Assembly (NCBI GenBank): GCA_965218055.1
Contig: CBDCKA010000001.1
Coordinates: 840,953-904,952, forward strand
Source of the DNA: Terriglobia bacterium
GTDB lineage: Bacteria; Acidobacteriota; Terriglobia; JAJPHL01; JAPKYU01
Reading direction: 5' to 3'
DNA: 64,000 nt
Shown one piece after another: positions 6,817-57,411 of the stretch. The position numbers and the translations under genes are program-made. Under the pieces are notes generated by a model that saw only the letters and a program-made list of their open reading frames with translations, did no database searches and had not been told where the DNA came from. Position 1 is the stretch's first letter. Every line of letters begins with the position of its first letter.

Positions 6817-7137
6817 AAGAGTTGGCGCTTCTGCGGAGTTGATGGCCAACCCGCCCGCTGCCTTGCCCCACTCGAAACCCCAATAGGAACCACCGGTCGG
6901 TAGTGGGTCAGTTTCCGATAAGGGCGTTACATATCCAGTGGGCGGCGTGGCAGCATAGGTAAACACTAACCGACTAGTGGGGACCTATCTGCCGAATCCG
7001 AGCCAAATTCTTCCGTTTTAGAAACTTGCACTGCCAGTGAGCCCCCGACTAGCTTCTTCTCAGGCATTCTCAACAGACCCGCCTCGCGTTGACTTGCCTG
7101 CGGGTGGGGCGTAGGATGGGTGGCAAGAGGGAGCCTT

Positions 7138-8013
7138 ATGCGACTCACGCGCGAAGCAATCCTGATAATCCTTTTGTTAACCCCGGTTGTAGTCAGGGCT
7201 GGGGACATCAACAAAGACCTGTTTGAAGCGGCAAGGAAAGGGAACACCGACACCGTGCAGGCGTTGCTCGCCGGAGGAGCGGACGTCAATGCCAAAAGCA
7301 ACTCCAGAGGCGCGGGGAGCCGGGCCTTGAGGTACGCGGCAAGCGGAGGCCACGCCGACGCCGTGAAGGCCTTGCTCGATGCGGGCGCAGACGTCAATGT
7401 CAAAAGCAGGGGCGGATGGACGGCCTTGATGCGCGCGGCAGACAAAGGCCACGCCGACGCCGTGCAAGCCTTGCTCGACGGCGGCGCAGACGTCAATGCC
7501 AAAAACGAGTCTTTAGAGACGGCCTTGATGCGCGCGGCAGGCGGAGGCGTCACGATGCGCCTGCGCCCGTTCACCGCAGGCCACACCCACGTCGTGCAGG
7601 CCTTGCTCGACGCGGGCGCCGGCGTGAATGCCATAAGCAGGGGCAAAGTGACGGCCTTAAGCTACGCGGCAGGCATAGGCCACACCGACGCCGTGAAGGC
7701 CTTGCTCGACGCGGGCGCAGACGTCAATGCCGGGCACTCTACTGGGACGACGGCCTTGATGGACGCGGCACACGAAGGCCGCACCGACGCCGTGCAGGCC
7801 TTGCTCGACGGCGGCGCAGACGTCAACGCCGGGCCATTTACGGCCTTGATGCGCGCGGCAGCCATAGGCCACGCCCCCACCGTGCAGGCCTTGCTCGACG
7901 CGGGCGCAGACGTCAATGCCAAAGGCAAGTTGGGGACGGCCTTGCGGGTGGCGCAGAAGTATGGGCGAACCGAAGTGGTTGAAATCCTCAGGAAGGCCGG
8001 AGCTAGGAAATAG
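7138..8013 (+). CDS. secreted ankyrin-repeat protein (about 8 ANK repeats)
   Basis: ORF 7120..8013 starts with GTG. ATG at 7138 is preceded by GAGGGA and gives the signal peptide MRLTREAILIILLLTPVVVRA. Then comes the repeated ALLAGGADVNAK..G.TALM.AA..GH.D.V.ALLDAGADVNA ankyrin consensus. Confidence 0.85.
   Translation: MRLTREAILIILLLTPVVVRAGDINKDLFEAARKGNTDTVQALLAGGADVNAKSNSRGAGSRALRYAASGGHADAVKALLDAGADVNVKSRGGWTALMRAADKGHADAVQALLDGGADVNAKNESLETALMRAAGGGVTMRLRPFTAGHTHVVQALLDAGAGVNAISRGKVTALSYAAGIGHTDAVKALLDAGADVNAGHSTGTTALMDAAHEGRTDAVQALLDGGADVNAGPFTALMRAAAIGHAPTVQALLDAGADVNAKGKLGTALRVAQKYGRTEVVEILRKAGARK
7180..7990. repeat. approximately 99-bp tandem coding repeats (ankyrin modules)
   Basis: gtgcaggccttgctcgacg(c/g)gggcgcagacgtcaatgcc... 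recurs about every 99 bp. This also generates long spurious antisense ORFs (6966..7646, 7416..7982, 7662..7928). Confidence 0.7.
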
Positions 8014-9586: not shown

Positions 9587-10242
9587 GGGAAGTGGACTCT
9601 CTGTGCGGCCATGCTACGTCCTGCCTACGGGCAAGTCAACATGGTGACCTCGTCACTGCCGGCTGGCGCGCGGCCGGCACACCCAGATTCGGGTGACATA
9701 CGCGAGCTTGGCGATCCGTGCCTGACTGCGCCCGACTGCGAACGTCTCTGGGGAGAAGGCAACGGGCGGAGGGAACCCTTCTCGTGGTGCTACATTTGTG
9801 CTATATAATGTTCTAAAGCAGGAAGTGTGCTGCGTGTCGCATTGGGTTGTGCCCATGGCCACAAAGTGCCGGAGTTGCGCTGGATTGGCGGTTCAAACAT
9901 TTCTCACCCAGTTGTCATGGGCCGAAGACCGCATGGGAGTAAGGCGGCGGGCCGGTAGTCGCCAGGTCGTTGGCCCAATCCCGCCGGTGTTGGGACATTG
10001 CGGCGGGCTGTGGGAAACCTGTGCAAAGAATTGGTGGATTCCTTATAACCATATGTTTATAAACACGTTACGTGGCTGGCCGTGCAGTGAAAAACTAGCG
10101 CCTGCTGCAGCACGGAGAGGCAAATTGGATCGTATTGTAGCGCAAGCGCTAACTTGCACCACCTTGCAGCAGCCGGAAAAACTTGCGGGCGACTGGAACC
10201 GCACTGTAACAATCGCTGCCTCCGCTTCCCGTTAAGCTCACG

Positions 10243-11607
10243 ATGGCTACTAGCGACCCGGTCTTGGAAAAAGGATTACCGAGCAACCTGGATGCCGAAC
10301 GATCGGTTCTCGGCGCCATCCTGCTGGACAACTCCGCTTACAACTACGCCGCTGAACTGCTGATCGCCGACGATTTCTCGAGCGGTGGCCACCGGCGGAT
10401 CTTTGCGCGGATGGTGGCTCTGGGGGAAAGCGGGCGGCCCATCGACCCGGTCACGCTGACCGAGGAACTGCTGCGCACCAACGAACTGGAGGCGGCGGGA
10501 GGGGTAGCCTCCCTGTCGGCACTCACCGAGGGACTTCCGCGGGCGACCAACGTGGCGCACTACGCCCGCATCGTCAAAGACAAGGCGGTCCTGCGCCGCT
10601 TGGTTCACACCTCCAACAGTATTCTTCACGAAGCACTGGAAGCCTCCGAGGATCCCGCCGACATCCTGGGGCGCGCCGAAAGCGCCATGCTGGCGGTCGG
10701 CGAAGACCGCGACCGCGAGGGGCTGACGACCCTAGGCGAGGTCTTCAAGAAGACCTACCGCTCGCTGGACGATCTGCTGGACCGCGGTAGCCGTATCACC
10801 GGCCTGACCACCGGATTCCGCCGGTTCGACGACCTGACCTGCGGGCTGCAGTCGAACGACCTGATCCTGGTGGCGGCGCGTCCGAGCATGGGCAAGACCG
10901 CCTGGGCGCTGTCGGTGACCCTGCACGTCGCAGCCAAACTTTTCCCTCCCCGCACCGTCGGCATCTTCAGCCTGGAGATGAGCAAGGAGGCGCTGTTGAT
11001 TCGCCTGCTGTGCGCGGAGGCCAAGGTGGACTCGCACAAGTTCCGCTCTGGCTTCCTCAACAAGGAGGAGATGCAACGGCTGGCTCAGGCTATGGGCCGG
11101 TTGGCCCAGGCACCCATCTACATTGACGACACCCCCGGCCTCCGCCTCCAGGAGATGCACGCCAAAGCGCGGCGGCTGAAGAAGGAGCACGGTTTGGCCC
11201 TCGTCGTGCTCGATTACATCCAGCTGATGAACGCACCGAGGGCGGAAAACCGTAACCAGGAGATTTCGGCGCTGTCGCGGGGGCTGAAAGCGCTGGCGAA
11301 GGACCTGGAGGTGCCGCTGCTGGCGCTCTCGCAGCTTTCCCGCGCTCCCGAACATCGCGGGCAGGAGCACCACCCGCAGCTGGCCGATCTGCGCGATAGT
11401 GGCTCGCTCGAGCAGGACGCCGACCTGGTGGCCTTCCTCTATCGCAAAGACTACTACCTGAGGATGGCCGGCCAGGAGGTGCCCGACGACGTCGCGGGGC
11501 GGGCGGAACTGATCATCGCCAAGCAACGCAATGGCCCCACCGATAGGGTGCCCCTTGCCTTCCTGGATCGCTTCGCGCGGTTTGACAACATCGCCGAGGG
11601 CTTTTAA
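10243..11607 (+). CDS. dnaB: replicative DNA helicase DnaB
   Basis: 454 aa. N-terminus LPSNLDAERSVLGAILLDN, Walker A ARPSMGKTA and the rest are typical DnaB. Confidence 0.95.
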   Translation: MATSDPVLEKGLPSNLDAERSVLGAILLDNSAYNYAAELLIADDFSSGGHRRIFARMVALGESGRPIDPVTLTEELLRTNELEAAGGVASLSALTEGLPRATNVAHYARIVKDKAVLRRLVHTSNSILHEALEASEDPADILGRAESAMLAVGEDRDREGLTTLGEVFKKTYRSLDDLLDRGSRITGLTTGFRRFDDLTCGLQSNDLILVAARPSMGKTAWALSVTLHVAAKLFPPRTVGIFSLEMSKEALLIRLLCAEAKVDSHKFRSGFLNKEEMQRLAQAMGRLAQAPIYIDDTPGLRLQEMHAKARRLKKEHGLALVVLDYIQLMNAPRAENRNQEISALSRGLKALAKDLEVPLLALSQLSRAPEHRGQEHHPQLADLRDSGSLEQDADLVAFLYRKDYYLRMAGQEVPDDVAGRAELIIAKQRNGPTDRVPLAFLDRFARFDNIAEGF

Positions 11608-40443: not shown

Positions 40444-40844
40444 TCTCCTCCACTGTATTTCTCCTCCACCGCATAGATCAACATGATCCTGGCCGGCCTG
40501 ATCTTAACCTTCTCTTCGCCCCGTTAGGCGGCCGCACAGTGGCCGACTGTGGCGGTGACATCCTCAGGTTGGTGCTGGCCGCTGAGCTGAAAGCAGCCCA
40601 CACGAACGGGGTTGCCTGCCGACCCAGAGACGGCTGGACGCGCGTTTGCAGACCTGTATCCCACCATTGCCTCCCCGCTTGATTCCTGCAAAGCGTGGGA
40701 TAGTGTAAGATAAGATTGGCTTTTTGTGAGCCAACTCCAGCTGGTGCAGGTCTGCCAGCAGCGCGGACGCAGTGCGAATTATGCCTTCGCTTGCTTTGCG
40801 GCCATGGAAGGACAGGTAGTCGAACTCTAGGGAAACACCGTCTC

Positions 40845-44536: not shown

Positions 44537-45937
44537 TCAAGACCCTTCGGTCTCGGGCTGGCGACCGAGGATCGACCGCGCTATCTCCACCAGGGCACGC
44601 GCATCAATGGGCTTGCTGACGAATTTCTCCGCGCCCATGGCCATAGCCTGGCCCGGGTCCTCCACGACCGACATGCGAATCACCGGAATGCTCCGGGTGC
44701 GATCGTTTTGTTTGAGCAGGTGGAGCAATTCAAAGCCACTCATGTCGGGCATGAGTAAATCCAGAGCAATGAGGGCAGGCTGATGGCATTCTGCTATTTT
44801 CCACCGCTTCCTCGCCTCGGTCGACGGCCCAGGCCCGGTAGCTGTTTGCTATTGAAAATGCCGCACATTGCCCGGGCCACGTCCTGGTTGTCGGTTCACC
44901 ACCAGGACGAGGGGAAGAGGCTGCTGCTCGGGGTGCGCCGGGGGCTGTCGCCCCAAGCGTGGCCGCCAACTCTGGCTCAGTGCAGGCCGGGGAGTGTAAA
45001 GAAAAACGTGGAACCCTGCCCGACTCTCGTGTCGAACCAAGATGCGGTCGCCGTGCCGTTCGATAATCGCCCGGGCAATCGCCAACCCCAGGCCCGAACC
45101 CTGGTGCTCCCGGGTCAAAGTATCCTCTGCCTGGGAAAATTTGCTGAAAATTCGCTTTTGAGCCTGCCGAGGAATACCTTTACCCTGGTCGCGCACCGAC
45201 ACCTCCACAAACGGGGCGCCATTCTGCATCACGCGGCGAGCTGCAACGGAGACGGTGGCCCCGCGAGGAGAATACTTGATGGCATTGGAAAACAATGAGC
45301 TGAGAGCTTGTTCCAGGCGCTCCCGATCAGCGTTGGCTGGAGGCAGGTCGGGCTCAATTGGGGCTTCTAGCGCCACATTTTTCTTCTCCGCACTCGCCGA
45401 ATGGCTGTTGAGCTCGTGCTGGATACTCTCCGCCACGGAAATGGGCTCCACGCACAAGGGTAGGCGGCGGGTTTCCAGCTTGAACATGTCCAGAATGCTG
45501 TTAGTTAGCGAGACGAGCCGGTCCGTATTCTTTCCCGCCAGTTCCAGTAGTTCTCGCAATTCGGGAGCCAGCGAACCCGCCGCCCCACCCAGCGCAAGTC
45601 CCAGCCGAACCTTTGATGGCCGTCAGCGGTGTCCGCACGGCACGCTTGGTCGGCTTCCAGCTCGGGGGGACTTTGGACCTGGACCACAGGCATCAAATAA
45701 ACGCGCAAGCTTCCCAGTGCACCGGCCAGCGGGAAAACCAATTCCGCCGTCAACGGGAGTCGTTTGCCGTATAGCAGCCAATTGTTTTTGAAACGCCTCT
45801 GAATCGTGGACGTAGTTTTTGAAAAGGCCAGCAATCTGAGGAAGTTCCAGCTGTTTTAGTTCCTCCGGGTCCAGCTGCGCCAGGTTGGCAGCCCGCTCGT
45901 TCGCCATAGCCTCCATTCTGGACTGCGTCATCTTCAT
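44537..45937 (-). pseudogene. hybrid histidine kinase (HisKA + HATPase + C-terminal REC), at least 5 frameshifts
   Basis: Receiver pieces are spread over three frames within 44750-44880 (LVLVVNDNQDVARAMCGIF / YRAWAVDRGEEAVE / KIAECHQPALIALDLLMPDMSGFELL...). The HATPase is intact (GSGLGLAIARAIIERHG). The H-box ...RTPLTAIKGS is in a different frame from ...LAPELRELLELAGKN (break near 45575-45600). The N-terminal part 45623..45937 is also split across frames. Confidence 0.55.
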
Positions 45938-46529
45938 GGATGCCAGAGGCCGGGTGGTGATAGGGACTTATGGTGCTGAGCTTCCTGGCCTTCGGGGGGG
46001 TTCTGGCCTTGTGGATTCACCTCATTCATGGGAACCCGCCATTTGTTCTCAAAAAGACCAGCCCCGGCCGAAGCCAGCCCCGGAGTTGCAAACCGTTGCT
46101 GATCATACGCAGTGTTCATCGGGAAACAAATTACTGGTGCCGGTTGCGCAGGCACGGCAGCGAGCACCTCGGGCACCCCAACACTGTAGCGGTCTGTTCT
46201 GCATGGCAGGGTTTGCCTCTGGAGCACCGGCATTCCACCAACGCCGCGCTGCTTTAGAGCGATGCCCGGGGCGCGACGGCCCGTCCTCGGCTATTCATCT
46301 TGTCCAGGAGCGGACGACGCGCGCAAGCAGCAGTGCACCAAAGGCAAGTGCGGCCAGTAGGGCGGGCGAGACGGCCGCCAGCACCAGCAGGTCGCGATCC
46401 AGGATCAGCCGATGAGAAACGTGCAGCGAGCTGGCAATCAACAGGACACCCATGGCGAAATAGAGTGAGCGTAACACCTAGGTTGCCATTTTTCCGCCTG
46501 AGCCCATAAGTGGTCAACCAACGCCGAAC

Positions 46530-47474
46530 TTACTGGACGGCCATTTTCGCGGGATTGCTCGCTTGGCCGTCGGTTTGGATCACGACGCCGAGATCGCCCG
46601 AGGGTGCATCAAGCGGCACCACAAGGTTCACCTGGTAGAGCCCCACAAATCCGGGGGCCAAGCCGGAGAAGAGCACTTCGGCAACGATACCGCCCACCGT
46701 CACCACCGGCGGAATCGAGGTGAGAGAGAGCGGAGAAGCCGAGGCGGGCGCTCCCGTGAGCGGGGCGGGAGCGACCGGTCCCAGGCCCGTGGCGTAAACA
46801 ACCACCGGCTCACCCGGCGACGCCGGATTTTCGGGCGTGACAAGCTGGAAGGTCTCATTATGCAGAATGGCGCCTGCCGTGCCGTCGAGGGTAAGAATTC
46901 CCGGCTGGGCGAGCGAAATGTTGACCTCGACCGGATCGCTTAACACGCCGTTGTTGTTAACCACTACGGTCACAGTCGCCTGCCCGGTCAGCTCGTAGGG
47001 AACCTGCAGGTTGATCTGCTCCTGGCCATCCACGGTGGCGACGGTAAACAGCGGCACGGCAATGCCACTCAGCGTCACTGAAGTTCCCTGCAACTCGGTG
47101 GGCAGCGGAAGCTGCTCGGCCAGCACGACGCCGCTCACGTCTGTGGTAATCCCCGTCCCGAAGATGGTGACGATGGCCCCCGGCGTCACACCAGGCACAA
47201 AGCTTGCACCGTTCGCATCAGAAAACGCCGCCTCCTGCACGCTGTGGCAGTGAGAGGACATGGGGAACGCCTCGGTCACCGACACCGCGAAGGGTACATG
47301 TGGTTTCCGGGTGACTCGTGGTGGGTCGAAGAACCAAAACCCGCCGTGCTCTGGCGGGTGAACGGAAGGACCACCGGGACTGCCCATGTCAGTCCCAATC
47401 TGATGCCGATCTACCGCAAGCCGGATGCTGAGCACCTGGACCTGGTGCACCTCCGGGCCGGTGTAGACTCTCAA
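46530..47474 (-). CDS. 'Solibacter-type' C-terminal-domain protein lacking a signal peptide (probable gene fragment)
   Basis: 314 aa. From about residue 80, the pattern VQEAAFSDANGASFVPGVTPGAIVTIFGTGI...LSGIAVPLFTVATVDGQEQINLQVP...APGFVGLYQVNLVVP matches the C-terminal domains of 33883..35853. The N-terminal 80 aa have no signal or TM. Confidence 0.55.
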   Translation of the reverse strand: MRVYTGPEVHQVQVLSIRLAVDRHQIGTDMGSPGGPSVHPPEHGGFWFFDPPRVTRKPHVPFAVSVTEAFPMSSHCHSVQEAAFSDANGASFVPGVTPGAIVTIFGTGITTDVSGVVLAEQLPLPTELQGTSVTLSGIAVPLFTVATVDGQEQINLQVPYELTGQATVTVVVNNNGVLSDPVEVNISLAQPGILTLDGTAGAILHNETFQLVTPENPASPGEPVVVYATGLGPVAPAPLTGAPASASPLSLTSIPPVVTVGGIVAEVLFSGLAPGFVGLYQVNLVVPLDAPSGDLGVVIQTDGQASNPAKMAVQ

Positions 47475-47538
47475 AGCAGCTTGGGCCGATCTCTCGACCT
47501 ACGTTCAGCCTCACTAGCCGCTTGCCGATTGGATGATC

Positions 47539-47590
47539 CAAAAGAAAAGGGGAGCCCGATTCGGATCGGACTCCCCTTTCGGTTTCTAGT
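47539..47590. terminator. bidirectional intrinsic terminator downstream of 47649..48755
   Basis: caaaagaaaa-GGGGAGCCCGATtcggATCGGaCTCCCC-TTTCGGTTTCT. GC stem flanked by an A-run and a T-run. Confidence 0.6.
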
Positions 47591-47648
47591 CTCGTGCGTA
47601 AGGCTCTTTCCTCACAAGAGGAGCCGCTGCACGATGGCCCTTCTTAAC

Positions 47649-48755
47649 TTACTCCGTCCGCACCGCGAGATAGCCCTGCGCCAGGGTGTTGTCTCCGTCA
47701 GTGATGAAGGCAAAGCCGTGCGCATTCCGAAATTCACAGGTTGCAGTGATATAGCCCTGGAATTCGGCGGCAATATTTGACAGAAGATCGACCCACTGTG
47801 CCCCACCCGCGACAGGCTCGGGCGTCATCAAATCATCAGGAGCATCGGGACCGCTGTACTCGATGGTGCAGGAGCCAGATCCCTCCGAGGCATTCGTGAT
47901 GACCAGTCCGGTATTGAAGCCGAGCTGGTTGGTCACGAACGGGAACAGCAGCGTCGTGGTGCAATCGTTGATCTCGATCACATCGTTGGTGGGGCCGCTG
48001 GCATAACGCGGGCTCTTTGCAGCGTCATCGGTCACGGGATGATAGCTGACGGTCACGGAACCGGTATTAAGCGTCGGCTCTCCCGCCTCCCACGTGAACG
48101 TTATCGTCAACTCATTCCATTCCATTGCTTTCTCGGCGTCCGTCCCCTCGCGCACGTCGTCAGTAGTATCGAGCTCATCGTCGAAGTTGTATACGATCTG
48201 ACCCGCACGTGCTACTGACAGAGCGACGTTTCCGTCCTCATCAAGGCCGCTCATCTCCCCCTCGGTCATCAACGTGAGTGGGGCTAAATCGCCCGATATA
48301 ACTTGTGGGGAAGCGGTGAGATCTGTCATCTCGAGTGCCATTCTCGTTCCCATCATGCTCGGCGTCACGGTCACACCCTCAGGAATGTCGCGGAAAGCCA
48401 CCACGAGCTGATTTTCATCGTTGAGCGCGCTCGCAAAACCTTCCACGAACTTGATGGTGGCTACGTTCATGTTGTCCGATGGGGCCTCACACTGCAGACC
48501 CGTAGCCGAGGTTACCGTAATGTCGAGTCCGGCTGTCACGTCGGCGAGTTTAATCGGACTGTGTTTAATCATCACACCGTTGACACGAACTTCCGCGGTG
48601 ACATCATTACCATCTCCCACCATGGAGGCGTTGGCCATGATCCCGCCGATAGTTACCGTGCTACCCGTCGCAGTGTTAGGGAAATTTATACCAGTGTTGT
48701 CGGTGGCGATAGTCCAAAACGCTTCGCCAGATCGTTTGTAACTAGCTAATACCAA
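47649..48755 (-). CDS. acidic Thr/Asp-rich protein, shorter paralogue of 49640..51094 (TTG start, no signal peptide)
   Basis: 368 aa. Aligns with the C-terminal two-thirds of the 49640 protein (ASMVGDGNDVTAEVRVN ~ ANAYMVGDDGEISAQLTVN). Shares the C-terminal 4-Cys module FPFVTNQLGFNTGLVITNAS...CTIEY...CEFRNAHGFAFI...AQGYLAV. Confidence 0.65.
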   Translation of the reverse strand: MVLASYKRSGEAFWTIATDNTGINFPNTATGSTVTIGGIMANASMVGDGNDVTAEVRVNGVMIKHSPIKLADVTAGLDITVTSATGLQCEAPSDNMNVATIKFVEGFASALNDENQLVVAFRDIPEGVTVTPSMMGTRMALEMTDLTASPQVISGDLAPLTLMTEGEMSGLDEDGNVALSVARAGQIVYNFDDELDTTDDVREGTDAEKAMEWNELTITFTWEAGEPTLNTGSVTVSYHPVTDDAAKSPRYASGPTNDVIEINDCTTTLLFPFVTNQLGFNTGLVITNASEGSGSCTIEYSGPDAPDDLMTPEPVAGGAQWVDLLSNIAAEFQGYITATCEFRNAHGFAFITDGDNTLAQGYLAVRTE

Positions 48756-48766
48756 TAGATGTACTG

Positions 48767-49057
48767 TTAATCAACGCCCATCAATCCCCTTATTGAATCC
48801 CTCTTTGTAAACGGGAACCCATTGGCCCATTCTGGACTTTTGTAGACCGGTTTGCGAGCAATCCACCCTGAGTCCGGGAATCCGAGGCGGTTGAGTAGGG
48901 TGGCAATCTGCGTGTGCTGCGAATCGGAGATTCGCTGGCTGTGCCGCTGTGCTTCAGCGGCCCGATAGTCGGCCGCGTGCGAACCATCACGACGAGCCTT
49001 CACGACCTGTGTGGAATGGGTGCTCGCGGACCGCAGTGTTTTCAGCTCTTTTGTCAT
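48767..49057 (-). CDS. small hypothetical protein between the two paralogues
   Basis: Within ORF 48767..49072. ATG at 49057 preceded by GGGG. MTKELKTLRSASTHSTQVVKARRDGSHAADYRAAEAQRHSQR... No family recognised. Confidence 0.4.
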   Translation of the reverse strand: MTKELKTLRSASTHSTQVVKARRDGSHAADYRAAEAQRHSQRISDSQHTQIATLLNRLGFPDSGWIARKPVYKSPEWANGFPFTKRDSIRGLMGVD

Positions 49058-49317
49058 CGCGTGACCCCGCAAGTCTAGCTAGATGGAAGTGGCTGCCTAT
49101 CATATCAAGCCAAAGTTGCACATTCAAAGCTATTCAGCCGAATCGCAGCGGCTTGGACAGGCTACTGCGGTCATTGCAAGTCGCCCTCGGCACCCTGCGG
49201 GTGTGCCTCATCGAGTTCCGGATCGCCCTCACCTCTGCGGACCGAGCGCTCGACGAGATCGACCCGCCGCCTCAGATCGGCCAGCCCGGCGGTTCGGGCG
49301 GCGCCGCCTACCCTTAG

Positions 49318-49640
49318 CGTACAAGCCTACCAGACTGTACGCTCTACAAGACAGGCAGGAAAAATGAGCACAGGCTTACCAGCCTATGCTCTCCAGGGGG
49401 CAGGCAGGAATGCCTACCCTACCTTTTGAAAAGGAAAAAAAGGGAGCCTCATCTGGATGAGGCTCCCCTGTAGTTTCCGGCTTGGCGTTCAGGCGCACAC
49501 ACGCCGTCAGGCAGGAAGCGAGTACAGGCCTTGCGGCCTGTACTCTACGCCTAAGCGCAATCGAAGGAGATGGAAACTGAGCACAGGCCTTAGCGGCCTG
49601 TGCTCTCTACAACCCAGGCAGGAATGCCTGCCGCTATGCT
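49318..49640. repeat. cluster of REP-like palindromic repeat units (hairpin + CAGGCAGGAATGCC box)
   Basis: Hairpins: cgtacaAGCCTACCAGACtgtacg (49318-41), gagcacaggcTTACCAgcctatgctc (49366-91), gagtacaggccTTGCggcctgtactc (49520-45), gagcacaggccTTAGCggcctgtgctc (49579-605). Each is followed by ctctacaa(g/c)NcaggcaggaA(atgcct...). Confidence 0.6.
49425..49470 (-). terminator. intrinsic terminator of the 49640..51094 transcript
   Basis: In transcript orientation: GGGGAGCCTCATCcagATGAGGCTCCC followed by TTTTTTTCCTTTT. A 12-bp GC-rich stem plus U-run. Confidence 0.7.
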
Positions 49641-51094
49641 TAGTCCTCCAAGTCGATGGCCAGGTAGCCCTGCGCCGCCGTGGGGCCGCTCATCGTACCG
49701 AAGCCGTTGGAGATGAAGGCGAAGCCGTGGCCGTTTTCAAAGTCACAGTCCACGTCGAGAAAACCCTGGAAGCCCATAGCGATCCCCGACAACACGTAAG
49801 TCTCGCTGCCCCAGGACGGGACCTCCTTCGTCTCCATATCGGCGGGATTGGCCTCCGCACCATAGAACTTGATCGTGCAAGTTCCGCCATAGTTGGAAGC
49901 GTTCGTGAAGGCGATCCCGGTGTCAAAGCCTCCCGCGTTGGTCACGAACGGAAAGCGCATGCTCGTCTCACAGGGATCGAATCCGATGACCCGCACGGCA
50001 GCGGCATCAGCGAACTGCGGATTACCCTCGCTAGCACTGACGAAGCCCACGCTCACCATGCCGTCGGCGATCACGGTGTCTTCCTCCCACGTGAAGCTCA
50101 CCATCAACGTATTGCTCTGCGTCATATCTCCGGCGTCAGAGACATTGTAAGTGACCGAGCCGTCGCCGTCGTCGTCCAGGGTAACTGGAATCATACCATT
50201 GGCCGCTGTCGCGGTTGATGTAGTGGTCAGCGTGACTTTCATGGGATCGGTAGTGCTATCGGTAACCGACACATCGTTGTTGGCTATGTTTGTGATCATC
50301 ACGGTCACGCCGTCCGGGATGCCGGCGAATTTCACCCTTACTACGCCATAGTCAGCACTGTCAGATTGGTCGGTGAGCGCCGTAGCAAAGCCTTCCGTGA
50401 TCGTTATGGTAGCCATTCCCATTTCCATGGTTTCGCACTGCAGGACGTTGGCATCGTCCACCTTGACGGCCAGTCCGGTTTTGACCTTCGAGACATCGAA
50501 CGCCCCCGGCGACACGGACTGCGTGTTCACAGTGAGTTGGGCGGATATCTCTCCGTCGTCTCCCACCATGTAGGCGTTGGCTCGGATGCCGGCGATGATC
50601 ACATTGAAACCGTTGTCGCCAACTCCCAAGCCGAGACTTGCGCCGCTGAGTTTCTCCCACACGACCGTGTTCGGGTCCTCATCGGCATCAATCATCGGAC
50701 CTGCATCACCGGCGGCAGGGTCAAACACGGTTTCGCTTATAGCAGTGCCGCCCGTAGTCCCATCACTGTTCAACTCAGCAGCGTCATAGCTCAGGTCAGC
50801 CAGGCTGGTGATTGGAGTGTTCAGCGTAATGCTTAATGTGAAATCGGTTATTGCAAACAGCGAGCCGGTGTCCTCTGAAGGCACGCACCGCAACTCGATG
50901 CCGCCGATCTGTTCGGTCATGCCCTCGGCCCGCACCGTGGCCACTGCATCGTCGCCCGTAGCAGCCCGCGCCTCGCACCGTTGCGCCTGGGCCACGCTGC
51001 TGCTCAGCACGATGGCCGCCAGCAGGGACAGCATGACGATGCTGTTTCTCAAGATCGCCTTTTGAACCCTCTTCATCGTTCTTCCTTTTTCCAT
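49640..51094 (-). CDS. secreted acidic Thr/Asp/Gly-rich protein of unrecognised family (candidate major surface / secreted protein)
   Basis: Within ORF 49640..51163. Start MEKGRTMKRVQKAILRNSIVMLSLLAAIVLSSSVAQA (signal peptide), GAGG 5 nt upstream. C-terminal 4-Cys module FDPCETSMRFPFVTNAGGFDTGIAFTNAS...CTIKFYG...CDFENGHGFAFI...AQGYLAI. Noticeably lower GC than the flanks. Confidence 0.8.
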   Translation of the reverse strand: MEKGRTMKRVQKAILRNSIVMLSLLAAIVLSSSVAQAQRCEARAATGDDAVATVRAEGMTEQIGGIELRCVPSEDTGSLFAITDFTLSITLNTPITSLADLSYDAAELNSDGTTGGTAISETVFDPAAGDAGPMIDADEDPNTVVWEKLSGASLGLGVGDNGFNVIIAGIRANAYMVGDDGEISAQLTVNTQSVSPGAFDVSKVKTGLAVKVDDANVLQCETMEMGMATITITEGFATALTDQSDSADYGVVRVKFAGIPDGVTVMITNIANNDVSVTDSTTDPMKVTLTTTSTATAANGMIPVTLDDDGDGSVTYNVSDAGDMTQSNTLMVSFTWEEDTVIADGMVSVGFVSASEGNPQFADAAAVRVIGFDPCETSMRFPFVTNAGGFDTGIAFTNASNYGGTCTIKFYGAEANPADMETKEVPSWGSETYVLSGIAMGFQGFLDVDCDFENGHGFAFISNGFGTMSGPTAAQGYLAIDLED

Positions 51095-51574
51095 CTCGCC
51101 TCTTCTCCTTCTTGATTTCAGAGTCAGAATTTTTGATTCCTGGATGACGTTATACCTCAACATGCTCCCCCGTCACGAGAGCTACTGAACAACACGCTCA
51201 CCACAACTTCGCCGCTCCGGGCGGCAAGCTCTGGCAAACCGTACACTCTCGCCGGAGATTGAAAGCCTCACACAGTTCACCTTGGACCCACCCGGGGTGA
51301 TGACGCATTTTTTGTATCAACTCCAGCTGTGCCGCGTCAACTGTTTTTTTACTTTCCTGTTTACTACCCCAAACGGCCAGAGGCGGGATGGCGCGCTCTC
51401 GCCCCGATCATCACTGCCAGTCCAAGCCGGTCCAAACGTTCCCTGCCGCCTTACATACAAAGCGGCCATCGTGAAATTAACAACTGGCAGGGGGTATGTC
51501 AAGATTTTTTTTCGAAATGTGCCAGGAAAAAACAGGCCACTAGGGGGGGCAAGGGGGCGGTAGGCAGTAGGCGG

Positions 51575-51904
51575 CTATCCGGGGAGAAATTTTTGCGGAT
51601 CGGCCATCATACGACCCAACATTCTGCCTAACTGTTCATACCCGGTGACGATGCGCCTATGCAGATCCTGCGATAAGTAGCCGCAATCACGGGCGAAGTC
51701 GAGCCACACTTGCGTTTCGGTTGCCTCCGCGTCGGCGTCAGCAAGCTTACTCACAAACATACTCGGATATTGCCGCTTTCTGAAGCCTTCGGCGAGGTTC
51801 GCGGCAACGCTGCGTGAGGAGCGGCGTATTTGATCGGTCAAGGAGAAACGCTCATCCCTGGGGAATACCTTAGCCGGAATTTCCATTTTGAGCTTCCCCT
51901 TCAC
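51575..51904 (-). CDS. four-helix-bundle protein (23S rRNA intervening-sequence protein / Avd family), possibly N-terminally truncated
   Basis: 109 aa. ...FPRDERFSLTDQIRRSSRSVAANLAEGFRKRQ...WLDFARDCGYL matches the PF05635 core. The usual N-terminal helix (about 30 aa) is absent; an in-frame stop lies immediately upstream. Confidence 0.75.
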   Translation of the reverse strand: MKGKLKMEIPAKVFPRDERFSLTDQIRRSSRSVAANLAEGFRKRQYPSMFVSKLADADAEATETQVWLDFARDCGYLSQDLHRRIVTGYEQLGRMLGRMMADPQKFLPG

Positions 51905-52049
51905 CCGAAAACCTATGCCTCGTACCCTGTCGTGTCAATCGCAAATCGCCCGGGCCTCTTTGAGGTGGTAGTGCGGCACATTTTGGCTGTTCTTCGGAGT
52001 CGCTGTGCGGGTTTCGCCTGCCCAGCCTGCCTCGCCGCTGACACTTGTC

Positions 52050-53600
52050 CGGCCCGACCACTTCTGAGCACCTAAAATTACCCTCTCTCCTGGGTCGCTA
52101 GCCGTCTGGCAGCGGCAGTGCCGAGATCGTTCGCAGCATGCTGCTGAACAGCCTCCGGCTCAAGTGCCCTTCGGCCAGCAAAAGCCAGTAATATCGTGCA
52201 TGTTTCACCAGCCGTCCGCCCGTTTTCACCAGCCGCTGCTGCAAACTCGTCAGCGACCAGTTGTTGATCCTCTTCGGTAGCACCAGCCGCCGCCACAGGT
52301 TTCCCAAGTTGTAGGCGATCAGGCTCAGCCATAGGCGCACCTCGTTCGACCGAAACCGATGGCAACTCAGCCGGGTCATCTTTACCGCCTGCTTGCCTTC
52401 CTTGATCCATTGCTCTGCGGTGCCCCGCTTGTTGTAGAACCGGACCACCGCCCGGCTGTCGGTCTCCAGATTGGTGACGATGAACCCCACGCGAGGGAAC
52501 AGTTCGCCAAAGTGGAACTCCACCTTCGCCACCACCCGCCGCGCCTTTTTCCAACTGGCTGCCTGGTAGAGAAAGCTCTTGTACCAGACCACCGGCTTGT
52601 GGCTCGGTCGCCCCACTGACCGCGTCAACAACTCCGCGATGTCCCTCTCCAGACTGTCGTTGGCCGGGATGCGAATCGCATACTTCACGTCCCGCTCCTC
52701 CAGTGCGTCGTAGATCTCCGGCTTGGCGAAGGCGGCGTCGGCGCGAAACACCGCTTCCTTGCCCAGCTTCTGCTGCCGTTCGATCTCTGGCAGGAGAAGT
52801 TCTTCCCAATCCTCGGCGCTGTGCACGTTGCCGGGTCGCAGCTTGGCCGCCAGACAGTCACCCTCGCGACTGAACAGCAACAACGGGTGATAGCAACTCG
52901 ACTCGAAATGCCCGTTGTAGGCGCTCTGTTCCTGCTCCCCGTAGACCGGGATCTCGGTGCTGTCCATGTCCAGCACCACCCGGCGCGGCGCATCCATAGC
53001 TTCCGCCCTGGCGATCAAATCCCGGTTGATCGCTGCCAAACCAGCAAGGTTCTCGTCTTGCGTCAGCAGTTCTGTCTCGAACGACTGTAACCGGGAAGTC
53101 AGGGCTGCGCCACGTTCCCAGATCTTCTCCGAACCGATCAGCCGGAACGTCGGATCTTGGGAAAGCCGCTCGGCGTCGTTGACGTCTTCGTATCCTGCCA
53201 AGCGGCTGTAGATGGACTGCCGCAGCAAGTCAGCGAGGGGCAACCGGGTGTTCTTCCCCCGAGAGTCGATCAAGTGCTGTTCGATAAGTTCGCCGAACCC
53301 CAAACGTTCGTCCAACTCGCGCACCAGAATCAGACCGCCGTCGGAAGTGATTCGCGATCCCTGAAATGTGACCCGCAGAAACCGGTTGAATGACAGTTGA
53401 AACGCCTGTTTTTGGCTCTCACCCATTCGGTGTACACCTCCGGAAGGCAATGTTGATGCTGGAACCCGCATCAATACTGACGTTGGAGTCATTCAGAAGG
53501 TTGCCGCCGATAGTTCATAAAGGAAATCCGGGCTTAGAATGCTGGAAGACCTCCATCGCTAGCTTGTACGCCAGTTGATAAGCTTTCAGATCCCGATGTC
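52050..53600 (-). mobile_element. IS1380-family insertion sequence (ends approximate)
   Basis: Single DDE transposase ORF with about 100-170 bp of flanking non-coding sequence. It sits between the Avd-like gene and the gspD 3' end. The terminal inverted repeats could not be defined confidently by eye. Confidence 0.55.
52098..53426 (-). CDS. IS1380-family DDE transposase
   Basis: Within ORF 52098..53492. Start MGESQKQAFQLSFNRFLRVTFQGSRITSDGGLILVRELDERLGF is the characteristic IS1380 transposase N-terminus. DDE region ...VVLDMDSTEIPVYGEQE... Confidence 0.85.
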   Translation of the reverse strand: MGESQKQAFQLSFNRFLRVTFQGSRITSDGGLILVRELDERLGFGELIEQHLIDSRGKNTRLPLADLLRQSIYSRLAGYEDVNDAERLSQDPTFRLIGSEKIWERGAALTSRLQSFETELLTQDENLAGLAAINRDLIARAEAMDAPRRVVLDMDSTEIPVYGEQEQSAYNGHFESSCYHPLLLFSREGDCLAAKLRPGNVHSAEDWEELLLPEIERQQKLGKEAVFRADAAFAKPEIYDALEERDVKYAIRIPANDSLERDIAELLTRSVGRPSHKPVVWYKSFLYQAASWKKARRVVAKVEFHFGELFPRVGFIVTNLETDSRAVVRFYNKRGTAEQWIKEGKQAVKMTRLSCHRFRSNEVRLWLSLIAYNLGNLWRRLVLPKRINNWSLTSLQQRLVKTGGRLVKHARYYWLLLAEGHLSRRLFSSMLRTISALPLPDG

Positions 53601-53664
53601 CCTGTAGCAATTGAACCTTCCGTCCACCGCCCGCTTTCCGCCTTCTGCTTTCTGCCTACTGGCC

Positions 53665-55941
53665 TTACTCGCTCTCCTGCCTGAGCGCCTTGCGCAATTC
53701 CTTCAATTTGTCGTGGAACTCCTTGGTGGCCATCTTGGCCTCGCCCATGTCCTTGATCACCCTGGGCGTGAGCAGGATGATCAGCTCGTTGCGGCTGGTG
53801 GAATCGCGGGTGGTGCCGAACAATAGCCCCAAGCCGGGAATGCGCCCTAACAGCGGCACTCGATTGGTGGAGACGATCCGGGTTTCCGAGATGATGCCGC
53901 CCAGGGCAATGGTCTCCCCGTCCTGCACCGTCACCTGAGTGGACACGGAACGCTTCTGGATCGAAGTCAGAGTGCCGCTGCTGGTCGGCAAGCTGACTTC
54001 CTGGTCGATACGCAACGTCACCAGCCCGCTGGGATTGATGCGCGGTGTCACCGACAGGATCACGCCGGTATCCCGCCGCTGGTAGGAACTGACAGGTGAG
54101 ATGGTCCCGAAGGCTACACCCTGCTGAGTCTGGATGGGAATCTCCTGTCCTACCTGGATGCGCGCCTCGGTGTTATTGCTGGCCAAAAGCGTGGGCGCGG
54201 AAAGCACCCGTGTGCGTCCCCGGTTCTCCTGGGCATTCAGGAACAGGAACAACTCGCGGCTGCGGCCTATCAAGGTGCCCACCGAAGCGCTCAGGCCGGC
54301 GTTAGGAAACGTCTCCGTCCCGAAAGCGCTGAATTGCCCAACGGGATTCCGGGAGGCGCTGCTGCGCCGCTGGAGGAACGCTTCGACCCCGAAGGACAGC
54401 GCCCCCGATAAGGTGACCTCGTACACCTTGGCTTCAATGAGCACCTGCCGGGGCGCCACGTCCAGCTCCTTCAGGGTCTCAAGGATGACTTCGTAGTCCT
54501 GCGGGGTAGCCTGGACGACCAGGGTATTGTTGATGGGGTCCGGAACAATGCGCGCCGGACTCTGCAACATTCCACCCGGCACAGCAGCTATGAAGATTTG
54601 CCTGGAACCCCGGTACATAGAACCCCGCGATGTTTGGCCCACCCCGCCGACAGGAAACGACACACCTCCGGGCGTCATTCCTCCACCAGCCGATCCCATC
54701 CCGCCGGGCGGTATCATCCCCGGCGCCGCCATCCCTGGCGCTGTCATCCCGGGCGCCGACGCTCCTGTTGCCTCCGCACCCATCATCGGCCGAGCTGCTC
54801 CGTAAAGGCCCGCCAATACGAAAGCCAACTCCCCCGCCGCCCTGTTTTCCACCTTGTAGGCAAAGTTCTGCAGTCCCCCACGGCGCACGGGCTTGTCCAG
54901 CTTCTCAATCCACTGCTGCACTTCCGAGTACACCTCGGAATTCGGAGTCGCCACCAGGATGGAGTTGATTCGCTCCAGTGCAATAAACCGCACCGCCGAG
55001 CCTTCCTTCGAGAGGGCATACGCCTTGAAGATTTCCTCCAGGTCCTTGACCAGGCTGCTGGCCTGGCTGTTCTCGATGGCAAACAACCGGACCCGCTGCT
55101 GCTCCAGCGCCGAGGTGTCAAACAGGTTCACCATCTCCATTAGCCGCTTCAGGCTGCGGCTGGTGTCGGTGATGAGCAGGATGTTGCCCGGCTCGTGGGT
55201 CACGATGTGGCCCGCTTCCGACAGGTAGCTGCTCAGGATTTTCGACATATCCGCGGCGGTGACGAAGCTGAGGGCGACCACGTTCATCACCATGCGGTCA
55301 TCAGGCGGCAGGCTGGCTCCAGTGGGATCCTGGGTGAGCGGTAGCGGAACACGCGGCGCTCCCTTCAGGGGCACGATCCGCCAGAAGCTGCCGCTCTGGA
55401 CGGCCGAGGCCCCGTTGGCCCGCAGGATGGCCTGCAGCAGGGGCAGCAGGTCCTCATGACTCAGGTTGCCCAGGGTGTTGATGTTCACCACACCCTTCAC
55501 CCCAGGGTCCACGACATAGTTCATCTTGAGTTCGGCGGCAATGATCCCAATCACCTGAAGCAGGTTGGCATTCTCCAGGTGGAGGCTGATGCGCGCCCCA
55601 GCTCGCGTCTTCTCCGTTGCCGGTGCCGCTTCCGCCTCCTGCGCGGGAGGCTCTGCCGATGGCTGGTCTTGAGGCTGGGCAGTCGGTTGTTGCGGTTCCT
55701 GAGCCTGAGGCTCTGTCGGTTCCCCCTGCGCTGGCGGCTGGACCGATTGCTCGGTTTGAGACTGCGCAGGTGGTTGCGCGGGTTCCTGGACCGGCGCGGC
55801 CTTCCTCGGAGTGCTGCCTGCGGCGACCGTCGACATCAGCCCCCAAGCTGCTAAAACTAGGACGGCGCTACCCAGTTGGCCTCTCAGTACACCGGATGTG
55901 AAATTCTGCATCCTCTTCATGGTTCGTTTTATTCGGCTCAT
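53665..55941 (-). CDS. gspD: type II secretion system secretin GspD
   Basis: Within ORF 53665..56007. Start MSRIKRTMKRMQNF. Signal peptide, Pro/Gln-rich linker, N0-N3 domains, and secretin domain ...GETIALGGIISETRIVSTNRVPLLGRIPGLGLLFGTTRDSTSRNELIILLTPRVI. Confidence 0.9.
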   Translation of the reverse strand: MSRIKRTMKRMQNFTSGVLRGQLGSAVLVLAAWGLMSTVAAGSTPRKAAPVQEPAQPPAQSQTEQSVQPPAQGEPTEPQAQEPQQPTAQPQDQPSAEPPAQEAEAAPATEKTRAGARISLHLENANLLQVIGIIAAELKMNYVVDPGVKGVVNINTLGNLSHEDLLPLLQAILRANGASAVQSGSFWRIVPLKGAPRVPLPLTQDPTGASLPPDDRMVMNVVALSFVTAADMSKILSSYLSEAGHIVTHEPGNILLITDTSRSLKRLMEMVNLFDTSALEQQRVRLFAIENSQASSLVKDLEEIFKAYALSKEGSAVRFIALERINSILVATPNSEVYSEVQQWIEKLDKPVRRGGLQNFAYKVENRAAGELAFVLAGLYGAARPMMGAEATGASAPGMTAPGMAAPGMIPPGGMGSAGGGMTPGGVSFPVGGVGQTSRGSMYRGSRQIFIAAVPGGMLQSPARIVPDPINNTLVVQATPQDYEVILETLKELDVAPRQVLIEAKVYEVTLSGALSFGVEAFLQRRSSASRNPVGQFSAFGTETFPNAGLSASVGTLIGRSRELFLFLNAQENRGRTRVLSAPTLLASNNTEARIQVGQEIPIQTQQGVAFGTISPVSSYQRRDTGVILSVTPRINPSGLVTLRIDQEVSLPTSSGTLTSIQKRSVSTQVTVQDGETIALGGIISETRIVSTNRVPLLGRIPGLGLLFGTTRDSTSRNELIILLTPRVIKDMGEAKMATKEFHDKLKELRKALRQESE

Positions 55942-55954
55942 CTCAGATTCTGCC

Positions 55955-56752
55955 TCATTGGGTTTTCTGCGCCGCCGGGAGATCCTCATACCAGGTCTGT
56001 ACGCCAAATGGCGTTACCCGGTCGTATCTCTTCCGGTTACCTTCGACGGTGACGGTTAAATAGCGATCCCCGGTGGGGGAGCCGGTCGCTGGGGCGACAG
56101 CGGGAGCGGTGGCGGCTCCTGGGGTGGGTGTAGACGCCGGCCCTGCAGAAGAAGCTGAAGGGGCAGCCGGAACAGCGGTCAACACCTGGTCGGCCGCGGT
56201 GCCGGCCGGGCGGGCGGGCCGGACTGCGGCCCGCCCGGCGGCCTGGCGCACGTTTTCGGCTGATTCGTAGACATCAATGGTGGTCTTCTGGCCCTCGAAT
56301 TCGATAATCACCTGGTGCTCGGCGATTTCCGCCACGCGATAGCCACCGATTTCATCGCCCACCTTGAGCCGGCGGAATGTGGCCTGCCTGGCCTGTTGCG
56401 GCTCGGCCATCAGGGCCACCGGACCGCTGCCGAGGTTCACGGTTCCAATCACCAAGGGGACCGGCGGCCGGACCTTGGATACGCTTGCCAACGCCTGGTC
56501 GTTGTTGCGGTCGGGGCTGAACAGGTTGCGGGTAAGCAGCACGGAGTGGCTGTCCGGGACAGCCGCCAGTCCAGCTTCAGGCATGCCTGCTTTGGACACA
56601 CCTGCCCAGGGGGTGGCTGCTGAGGTCACAAACTGCTTGTAGCGGGCATGATTGCTCTGCCAGGTATCGTGGATGGCGGCAGCAACCCACACCGCCAGCG
56701 TCAAGAGGGCCAGGTTAAGATAGGTTATCGGTTTGCGCATGCTTTCTCTCAC
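55955..56752 (-). CDS. T2SS accessory protein (GspC/GspN/PilP-like), single N-terminal TM
   Basis: 265 aa. TM helix ITYLNLALLTLAVWVAAAI, then a periplasmic domain and an Ala/Pro-rich tail. Located between the gspM-like gene and gspD. Confidence 0.5.
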   Translation of the reverse strand: MRESMRKPITYLNLALLTLAVWVAAAIHDTWQSNHARYKQFVTSAATPWAGVSKAGMPEAGLAAVPDSHSVLLTRNLFSPDRNNDQALASVSKVRPPVPLVIGTVNLGSGPVALMAEPQQARQATFRRLKVGDEIGGYRVAEIAEHQVIIEFEGQKTTIDVYESAENVRQAAGRAAVRPARPAGTAADQVLTAVPAAPSASSAGPASTPTPGAATAPAVAPATGSPTGDRYLTVTVEGNRKRYDRVTPFGVQTWYEDLPAAQKTQ

Positions 56753-57411
56753 GATTTGGGAGTTGGCGCGGGCTCGGCGAACATCAGCCCACGAATCACC
56801 ATTCGCACCGTCACCATCTTTTGTGGCTTTTGTGGTTTTTGTGTCCGACCGGGACGCGAGGGCAACGCCCTAATGGAGAGCTGATCCAGCGCCAGTACCT
56901 TGCGACTGGCGTGGGCAGCCAGCAGAAAACTCGTGAGCTGGTCCAGCCTGCATTGGAACGACAACGACAAGGGCACGACGTTATAGCTCGCCCCGGCGAC
57001 CTTGAGAACCCGCACCGGCCGGAAGGCGGCGTTGCGCATTTCCATGCCCTGCTTCGCCATCAGTTGCTTGATCACTTCCTGCAACTCGGCCGCAGCCAGG
57101 GCCGACGTGCTGCTGCTCAGCAGGCCTTTCTCGGCTTCAGCCAGACGAGCCTGCATTTCCTGAAACTCCTTTTTCTGATCTGCGGCCAGGGCTACAAGTC
57201 GCCGGTATTTGCGCAGGGTCTTCTCCTTCAGTGGCAGCGAGGCACGGAGCTTCTCGGCGGGGTCCATGACGGGCAAGACAAGCAAATCCAGCAGCAGGAA
57301 CAGAGCAGTGGCAGCTGCCAGCAAGAGCAGAGCCCGCTGGTCTCGAGCGCTCAAAGAACGCAAGAAAGACGCAGCTGTCGCTGGCTCCCTCTTCCTGCCT
57401 CCGTTAGTCAT
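56749..57411 (-). CDS. gspM: T2SS protein GspM-like
   Basis: 220 aa. One TM helix (ALLLLAAATALFLLLDLLVL) plus a coiled coil. Overlaps the gspL stop. Confidence 0.6.
   Translation of the reverse strand: MTNGGRKREPATAASFLRSLSARDQRALLLLAAATALFLLLDLLVLPVMDPAEKLRASLPLKEKTLRKYRRLVALAADQKKEFQEMQARLAEAEKGLLSSSTSALAAAELQEVIKQLMAKQGMEMRNAAFRPVRVLKVAGASYNVVPLSLSFQCRLDQLTSFLLAAHASRKVLALDQLSIRALPSRPGRTQKPQKPQKMVTVRMVIRGLMFAEPAPTPKS

Follow-up and report, generated by a model that had tools for sequence, protein, structure and literature searches.

A cluster of GTAG-tagged, REP-like double hairpins in the 3' region of an acidic-protein gene from a Terriglobia bacterium

What is the cluster of palindromes that follows the stop codon of an acidic-protein gene in this Terriglobia genome? 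The stretch of DNA that was analysed, called the window hereafter, comprises 64 kb, and the cluster occupies positions 49317-49637. The initial annotation reported at least four copies of the palindrome GAGYACAGGCC/GGCCTGTRCTC, each followed by a CTCTACAA..CAGGCAGGAATGCC box, and took them for a REP/BIME-like or small MITE family, or for stem-loops that stabilise the mRNA. According to our analysis the copies are very probably GTAG-tagged REPs in a BIME-like array, which belongs to a lineage-specific family of Terriglobia (Acidobacteriota).

The repeat had been described on the plus strand. The informative strand, however, is the minus strand, i.e. the sense strand of the upstream gene, and all units detected in the window by a profile search lie on it. 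The cluster consists of four copies of hairpin B, which is the annotated palindrome, and of hairpin A in two complete and two truncated copies. Hairpin A (GGCAGGCA-TTCC-TGCCTGCC on the minus strand) is identical with the CAGGCAGGAATGCC box, and the CTCTACAA motif, read on the minus strand, becomes TTGTAGAG, i.e. the GTAG foot preceding hairpin B. The former box comprises a second hairpin and, in reverse complement, a GTAG tag. It accompanies copies 1, 2 and 4 (in variant or truncated form) but is missing after copy 3, which is preceded by a CAGGCAGGAA remnant. A unit of ~66 nt has the form RGTAG-(0-3 nt)-hairpin A-CCCyTwA-hairpin B-CATyTCC, where the 5' end before hairpin A can be written more fully as RGTAG(C/G)G. 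The consensus is (G)RYAGGCA-TTCY-TGCCTGYC for hairpin A and GAGYACAGGSC-loop 4/5-GSCCTGTGCTC for hairpin B. Both hairpins are related by a common core (ACAGGC/GCCTGT), form a head-to-tail pair in each unit and carry a GTAG-type foot 0-3 nt 5' of the stem. In the order of transcription, the locus contains the following features, all on the minus strand (-).

49640..51163 (-): open reading frame of the acidic secreted protein; likely start M30 at 51076, then a signal peptide
49640..49642 (-): TAA stop codon of the acidic-protein gene
49575..49637 (-): complete REP unit 4 (A+B), starting 3 nt after the stop codon, with the tag ATAG at 49634-49637; nhmmer E = 1e-16
49615..49630 (-): hairpin A4, CAGGCA-TTCC-TGCCTG, the CAGGCAGGAATGCC box
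49607-49610 (-): GTAG foot of B4 (ctac on the plus strand), 1 nt from the stem
49579..49605 (-): hairpin B4, perfect 11-bp stem, loop of 5 nt, GAGCACAGGCC-ttagc-GGCCTGTGCTC on the plus strand
49508-49548 (-): partial unit 3 (3' half of A plus B)
49545-49548 (-): GTAG foot of B3, overlapping the stem base
49520..49545 (-): hairpin B3, perfect 11-bp stem, loop of 4 nt, GAGTACAGGCC-ttgc-GGCCTGTACTC on the plus strand
49508..49517 (-): truncated hairpin A remnant, TTCCTGCCTG, i.e. loop and 3' arm, directly 3' of B3
49435..49469 (-): intrinsic terminator of the acidic-protein gene, a 13-bp stem (49469-49440) with a T7 run (49441-49435)
49366..49424 (-): complete REP unit 2; nhmmer E = 7e-15
49399-49418 (-): hairpin A2, 8 bp with one U-G pair; GTAG at 49419-49422 immediately 5'
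49366-49391 (-): hairpin B2, 10 bp with one U-G pair, followed by ATTTTTCC; GGAG replaces GTAG
49317..49361 (-): partial unit 1; nhmmer E = 1e-3
49352-49361, 49344-49347 and 49317-49342 (-): parts of unit 1, namely a truncated A remnant, GTAG and the degenerate hairpin B1
49127-49099 (-): promoter-like site for the next minus-strand ORF

The four palindromes, two of them with perfect 11-bp stems (B3 and B4), were thus annotated correctly, as was the position of two copies between stop codon and terminator and of two beyond it. The spacing is irregular as described, but the distances given (40, 158 and 53 bp) have to be replaced by 49, 154 and 59 nt between the starts of successive B copies. 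B3 and B4 differ by a compensatory exchange of C:G to T:A, and a C/A mismatch of B2 on the plus strand is a U-G wobble on the minus strand. In the window, B stems have 10-11 bp and loops of 4-5 nt, A stems 6-8 bp and loops of 4 nt. An exact GTAG stands 0-1 nt from the stem in four of the six complete hairpins (A2, B1, B3 and B4), and the remaining feet are ATAG (A4) and GGAG (B2).

Within the window the repeat is concentrated in this one place. The decamer CAGGCAGGAA occurs four times (49352, 49401, 49508 and 49615) and nowhere else in the 64 kb, with 0.24 copies expected; none of 100 shuffles contained four copies. The 14-mer CAGGCAGGAATGCC has exactly two copies, both in the cluster. For GAGCACAGGCC with at most one mismatch, five copies were found in the cluster and one elsewhere in the window (expected 2.4). 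When all 64 kb were searched for perfect stems of 8 bp or more, no further member of the hairpin type appeared outside the cluster. The minus-strand RNA from 49300 to 49645 (346 nt) has a folding energy of -180 kcal/mol (z = -7.9), and its predicted fold corresponds exactly to the A and B hairpins and the terminator. Rfam 15 gave no match in the window at the gathering score, and the best hit of a permissive search in 48700-49700 reached 21.7 bits against a cut-off of 80.

No periodic array was detected in the window by TRF, in agreement with the earlier statement that the cluster is not a CRISPR. Furthermore, the spacing is irregular, the repeats are not identical, and repeat-derived sequence fills the intervals between them. 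An integron attC site was considered by eye only and appears unlikely, as neither a GTTRRRY core nor an integrase was seen.

By an operational definition, REPs have a stem of 7-20 bp, a loop of 2-5 nt and, 0-2 nt 5' of the stem, a GTAG or GTGG (PMC6006769). They are extragenic, mostly downstream of genes and clustered, and their G-T pairs hint at a function in RNA (PMC3733652). The hairpins of the Terriglobia family agree with this definition in stem and loop size, and the foot is found at the corresponding distance on one strand only. The two-hairpin structure was tested on an alignment of 32 units (A1), in which 93% of the cells are paired, compared to 28-44% in slid controls. Nine of the 19 pairs are changed on both sides, which was not reached in any of 500 shuffles, and the covariation score is 0.178 vs 0.111 in the shuffles (0.178 was attained in 0 of 500). 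The stems of A and B are under selection for pairing. Hairpin A is preceded by an exact GTAG in 23 of the 32 units and by one-base variants in six more. On the gene-sense strand, 33 G-T wobbles were counted vs 17 A-C mismatches, and pairing is maintained among the copies by compensatory changes and wobbles. The GTAG foot, the compensatory stem changes and the clustering support the proposed REP/BIME-like family. The cluster is not a REPIN in the strict sense, since an inverted doublet of the same REP with a short spacer is missing; A and B are arranged head-to-tail in the window, all on the minus strand.

The initial annotation had named the absence of further copies as an argument for a locus-specific structured RNA. 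Such copies exist in relatives. A scan for the strict B hairpin in one genome per species (185,579 species) yielded 25 loci, 14 of which belong to three MAGs classified as 'Terriglobia bacterium' (nine in CBDCTS01, three in OZ240237.1 and two in CBDBKE01). The other 11 are singletons from unrelated taxa, several of them terminator-like with a T-run after the hairpin; matches in multiple copies were confined to the three Terriglobia MAGs. A profile built from nine units detected ~45 units in twelve 8-kb Terriglobia loci. Three of these twelve loci are homologous to the window locus, and most units lie beside unrelated genes. The family is dispersed over eight separate loci on three contigs of CBDCTS01 and over three loci in OZ240237.1.

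Nearly all units fall between genes, as far as our own rough gene calls, based on GC3, can tell. The same rough calls place 25 of 30 units in the orientation of the gene 5' of them (~12-13 of 16 clusters, units within one cluster being non-independent) and let several clusters begin no more than 5 nt from a stop codon. In one locus (L012) the stop codon seems to be formed by the TAG of the foot. This locus also contains a four-unit head-to-tail array with a period of 58 nt (265-500). Downstream of the homologue of our acidic-protein gene in L006, the module of terminator and adjoining REP unit is present three times, and one site of L006 has an inverted doublet. At three places in CBDCTS01 (L006 699-800, L011 4559-4720 and L016 7825-7950) the units are followed by a shared segment, ...CCTGCCCCGCCTACACCCTCCGATCAGTGGC..., which ends in a T-run, so that the REP unit may be part of a longer composite repeat or of a small RNA gene.

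Around the locus, the window is nearly identical to the MAG CBDBKE01, its closest relative. Positions 48316-51052 align to the CBDBKE01 locus L024 and more weakly to the paralogous locus L020 of the same MAG and to the homologue L006. The 64 kb of the window's own genome contain a single cluster, and in CBDBKE01 the strict hairpin was found only at two paralogous copies of the acidic-protein gene. Hence, the family may be small or relict in the species of the window.

This distribution has to be weighed against a structured RNA specific to the 3' UTR of the acidic-protein gene family, either a cis-regulatory element or a 3'-UTR-derived sRNA, that is inherited with the gene. The restriction of the strict hairpin to paralogues in the closest relative would agree with it, as would the orientation of the units along transcription and the wobbles favouring the RNA-sense strand. 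The window, L024 and L020 have unit 4 in 100% identical form next to the stop codon, and L006, the 79%-identical homologue, has it in the same position. However, identity of the 3' flank with L024 is uninformative about constraint on the repeats, because the whole flank (48767-49640) is 96-100% identical. At least nine other clusters stand beside unrelated genes in CBDCTS01 and OZ240237.1, among them clusters in 5' regions and between divergent genes. Moreover, two of the four copies in the window are located past the terminator, and an Rfam family was not matched. We therefore regard an RNA specific for this gene family as very unlikely and favour the dispersed REP family.

REPs are linked to RAYT transposases, for which the initial annotation proposed to look. 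Apart from the one in L144 described below, motif searches and a tblastn comparison with 120 RAYTs revealed an intact RAYT gene neither in the window nor in 145 loci (~0.9 Mb of sequence from related loci). What could be found are two RAYT pseudogene fragments beside units in relatives. The first one is located in L020, where an ORF beginning with MVFYRRRLP starts ~45 nt after a unit and, following a 1-nt frameshift, is continued by HWQPQEKALFITWRLYGSLPATV; this RAYT N-terminus aligns to residues 9-47 of annotated RAYTs with 32 bits, a short and borderline match. The second one, in L017 and 78 nt from a unit, is YSLHADAVMPNPVRMGVKP and aligns with the HUH region YRLDAFSIMPNHVHSVIKP at a borderline E = 0.009. 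Both histidines are lost in it, and it has an in-frame stop. The remnants resemble RAYTs of the NHVH / YVLNNP type with ~215 aa. Since both fragments are short, this evidence is suggestive only; it suggests an association of REP and RAYT in which the transposase has decayed and the repeats are left as orphans. A word-based protein search with the frameshift-corrected 42-aa fragment from L020 did not provide a candidate for an intact cognate RAYT.

Four further candidates were rejected. An intact RAYT gene is present in L144 (reverse complement of 9892-10545; NF047646 with 79 bits, above the PF01797 cut-off), but it and all its homologues are of the Pyrinomonadaceae type, and they are tied to a different REP, GCAAACTGTTAGTTTGC. 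The motif YVLENPE in L020 is part of a conjugation-type gene, there is no plausible gene at the PSHVH motif at position 40838 of the window, and a weak RAYT-like tblastn match in L015 runs antisense to a penicillin-binding-protein gene. The RAYT gene of L144 is flanked on both sides by inverted copies of the different REP (AAAGCAAACTGTTAGTTTGCG...), and a GTAGGACAGGCATTCCTGCCTGTCC repeat is located 4 kb from it. With both repeats on one contig, two REP families reside in one acidobacterial genome.

Could a transposase other than a RAYT have moved the units? They would then be a non-autonomous derivative of an IS200/IS605-type or other IS (MITE or PATE). The element is short, hairpin-rich, present in multiple copies and intergenic, a DDE transposase gene (52098..53492) is only 2.5 kb away, upstream of the acidic-protein gene, and Acidobacteria have unusual Y1 transposases, namely TIRYTs and class 3 (PMC3733652, PMC6006769). 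Nevertheless, the ends of the unit in alignment A1, RGTAGSG... and ...CCATTTCC, are not inverted repeats, and the small MITE of the initial annotation is disfavoured because the unit has no terminal inverted repeats. The foot is GTAG, whereas class 3 elements have CnGA (PMC6006769); the nearby DDE IS and the units have no sequence in common; and the remnants beside units resemble RAYTs annotated as such. In view of these points an IS derivative is highly unlikely, slightly more so than the gene-specific RNA discussed above, and mobilisation by a RAYT is preferred. As to the DDE transposase gene itself (52098-53492, minus strand), it is intact (PF13701, E = 1e-118) and lies at a synteny break with the related MAG; L011 contains a 74%-identical relative of its segment 52405-52584.

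The gene in front of the repeats is conspicuous in its own right. The acidic protein has no relative in Pfam, NCBIfam or the PDB, and its gene (49643-51076, minus strand) is hypervariable between near-identical genomes, as seen in comparison with L024, L020 and L006. Against L024, the 3' flank is 96-100% identical but the coding sequence only 82%, with blocks of 37-68% identity interspersed with blocks of 90-97%. All three codon positions diverge to the same extent, and upstream of the start no alignment with the relative is possible. In L020 the paralogue is frameshifted. The pattern suggests diversifying selection or cassette-like recombination among paralogues, as far as can be judged from the sequences. 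On account of a bAvd-like neighbour, a diversity-generating retroelement was considered for the hypervariable gene and rejected: the region 45500-57000 showed neither a template/variable repeat pair nor a reverse transcriptase, so there is no evidence for it. This neighbour, encoded a short distance upstream at 51575-51904 (minus strand), is a '23S rRNA intervening sequence protein', a four-helix bundle (PF05635, E = 6e-24) with a sub-threshold bAvd-like match. Directly downstream of the acidic-protein gene, two more secreted proteins are encoded on the minus strand (46530-47474 and 47649-48755). One of them carries a Solibacter C-terminal domain (TIGR03437, E = 2e-60), which is consistent with an acidobacterial host; the other one is related to the acidic protein as a shorter paralogue, with stretches of 70-75% identity at 47887-47957 and 48613-48665. 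REP units are absent after the stop codons of both genes. The paralogous locus L020 adjoins conjugation-type genes (4297-7715, minus strand), including a large ORF resembling a TraG/VirD4-like ATPase, so the pseudogenised copy may sit in or beside an integrated mobile element.

Since the identity between the window and L024 is 82% in the coding sequence and changes abruptly to 100% precisely where the stop codon and unit 4 lie, the repeats could act at the DNA level, as protein-binding sites or recombination anchors at the 3' boundary of an exchangeable hypervariable gene cassette. The identical unit in the paralogues L020 and L024 would suit such a role. Yet the high-identity segment continues for 1.3 kb past the repeats, which are thus unnecessary to explain the boundary. 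In addition, most members of the family stand beside unrelated, non-paralogous genes, and a linked recombinase is missing. Among the explanations considered here, we rate this one as the least probable.

For the preferred reading, a REP family, the following course of events is conceivable. A RAYT (HUH/Y1) that recognised foot and hairpin presumably made and multiplied the units on single-stranded DNA. Local arrays would then enlarge or contract by recombination between units; the triplication in L006 and the half-A remnants in the window fit such growth and shrinkage. Later, the transposase seemingly decayed in this lineage, and the repeats stayed behind. In the window, the array would be transcribed as the 3' UTR of the acidic-protein gene, from 3 nt after the stop codon. 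REPs within ~15 nt of a stop codon reportedly reduce translation of the upstream gene, a finding ascribed to Liang, Rudd and Deutscher (2015). The first stem stands ~10 nt after the stop codon and may consequently damp translation termination of the upstream gene. By analogy to E. coli REPs, the stable stem-loops A4, B4 and B3 and the terminator would jointly stop 3'->5' exonucleases and would partly attenuate read-through into the downstream genes. Units 2 and 1, past the terminator, are probably passengers. In E. coli, the role of REPs as 3'-UTR stabilisers and partial terminators has been shown for REP325 (bioRxiv 10.64898/2026.03.23.713779). Transferred to the window by this analogy, a role of the array as a stabiliser or attenuator in the 3' UTR has, in our view, roughly even chances.

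A more far-reaching proposal is that the A+B double hairpin is a domesticated RNA module, oriented along transcription at or near stop codons of Terriglobia and sometimes supplying the TAG, which sets mRNA 3'-end stability and translation termination. In the present locus it could also be an invariant 3' anchor for the exchange of mosaic, hypervariable alleles of the acidic protein between paralogous, partly pseudogenised copies. We consider this improbable, though somewhat less so than a gene-specific RNA.

Hairpin A has a wider distribution than the complete unit. A metagenome scan with its core gave at least 120 loci. Among the matches listed, GTAGGAC-AGGCATTCCTGCCTGTCC(TAC) is the dominant form. 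Of the 127 copies in this list, 85 possess a GT[AG]G foot and 30 are accompanied within 130 nt by a tagged partner in inverted orientation. This partner often has a compensated stem (GACAGAC...GTCTGTC), an arrangement typical of classical REPINs. Hairpin A is combined with a second hairpin, whose stem is related but different, in two metagenome contigs (L063 and L115). Judging from these sequences, hairpin A is a member of a very widespread superfamily of GT[AG]G-tagged REPs in soil. In the literature searched, neither the GTAGGAC-AGGCATTCCTGCCTGTCC(TAC) repeats nor the sequences of the window units were found described.

In the surveys consulted, GTAG REPs are listed for Proteobacteria, the main source of catalogued REPs, and for Cyanobacteria, Chloroflexi and the PVC group, but none for Acidobacteria (PMC3733652); the acidobacterial elements described are TIRYTs and class 3 elements, the latter with a CnGA foot (PMC3733652, PMC6006769). 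With the Terriglobia family, a dominant soil phylum would be added to the known hosts of REP/RAYT systems. Its head-to-tail two-hairpin unit, strong co-orientation with transcription and apparently decayed transposase make it stand out. It provides a marker for the comparison of MAGs and a candidate 3'-UTR regulatory element, and is otherwise a genome feature of an expected kind.

Compared to known systems, the repeats of the window are similar to the REP/BIME elements of E. coli with their RAYT (TnpA-REP, PDB 4ER8; 'GTAG-3' in Di Nocera et al. 2013) in having a GTAG foot 5' of a GC-rich imperfect palindrome, in their extragenic, clustered location mostly downstream of genes, and in compensatory and G-T changes that keep the pairing. 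The roles as 3'-UTR stabiliser and partial terminator are documented for E. coli and assigned to the window by analogy. In contrast, the sequence in the window is unrelated, the stems are simple without bulged long loops and the host is acidobacterial. E. coli BIMEs alternate in orientation, whereas the window has head-to-tail pairs of two different hairpins, and an intact RAYT was not seen. Usually REPs are arranged as inverted pairs, and head-to-tail dimers are rare (PMC3733652). With the REPINs and RAYTs of Pseudomonas fluorescens (Bertels and Rainey 2011) the family shares a short GTAG-type hairpin that expands within a lineage and is presumably mobilised by a single-copy Y1 transposase; inverted doublets link these REPINs to the wider soil family of hairpin A (the 30 of 127 copies among the matches listed). 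The arrangement in the window and in the Terriglobia MAGs is, however, direct (A then B), with tandem arrays of 58-nt period. The metagenomic GTAGGAC-AGGCATTCCTGCCTGTCC(TAC) repeats correspond to hairpin A of the window in the TTCC/TTCT loop, the CAGGCA/TGCCTG stem and the GT[AG]G foot, but differ from it by a GGAC/GTCC stem extension, a frequent occurrence as inverted pairs and, mostly, the lack of hairpin B. Finally, the acidobacterial TIRYTs (Di Nocera 2013) and class 3 TnpA-Y1 elements (Quentin 2018) are from the same phylum and are likewise repeats linked to Y1/HUH enzymes. TIRYTs have long TIRs and class 3 elements hairpins with a CnGA foot, whereas the repeats described here carry the canonical GTAG foot.
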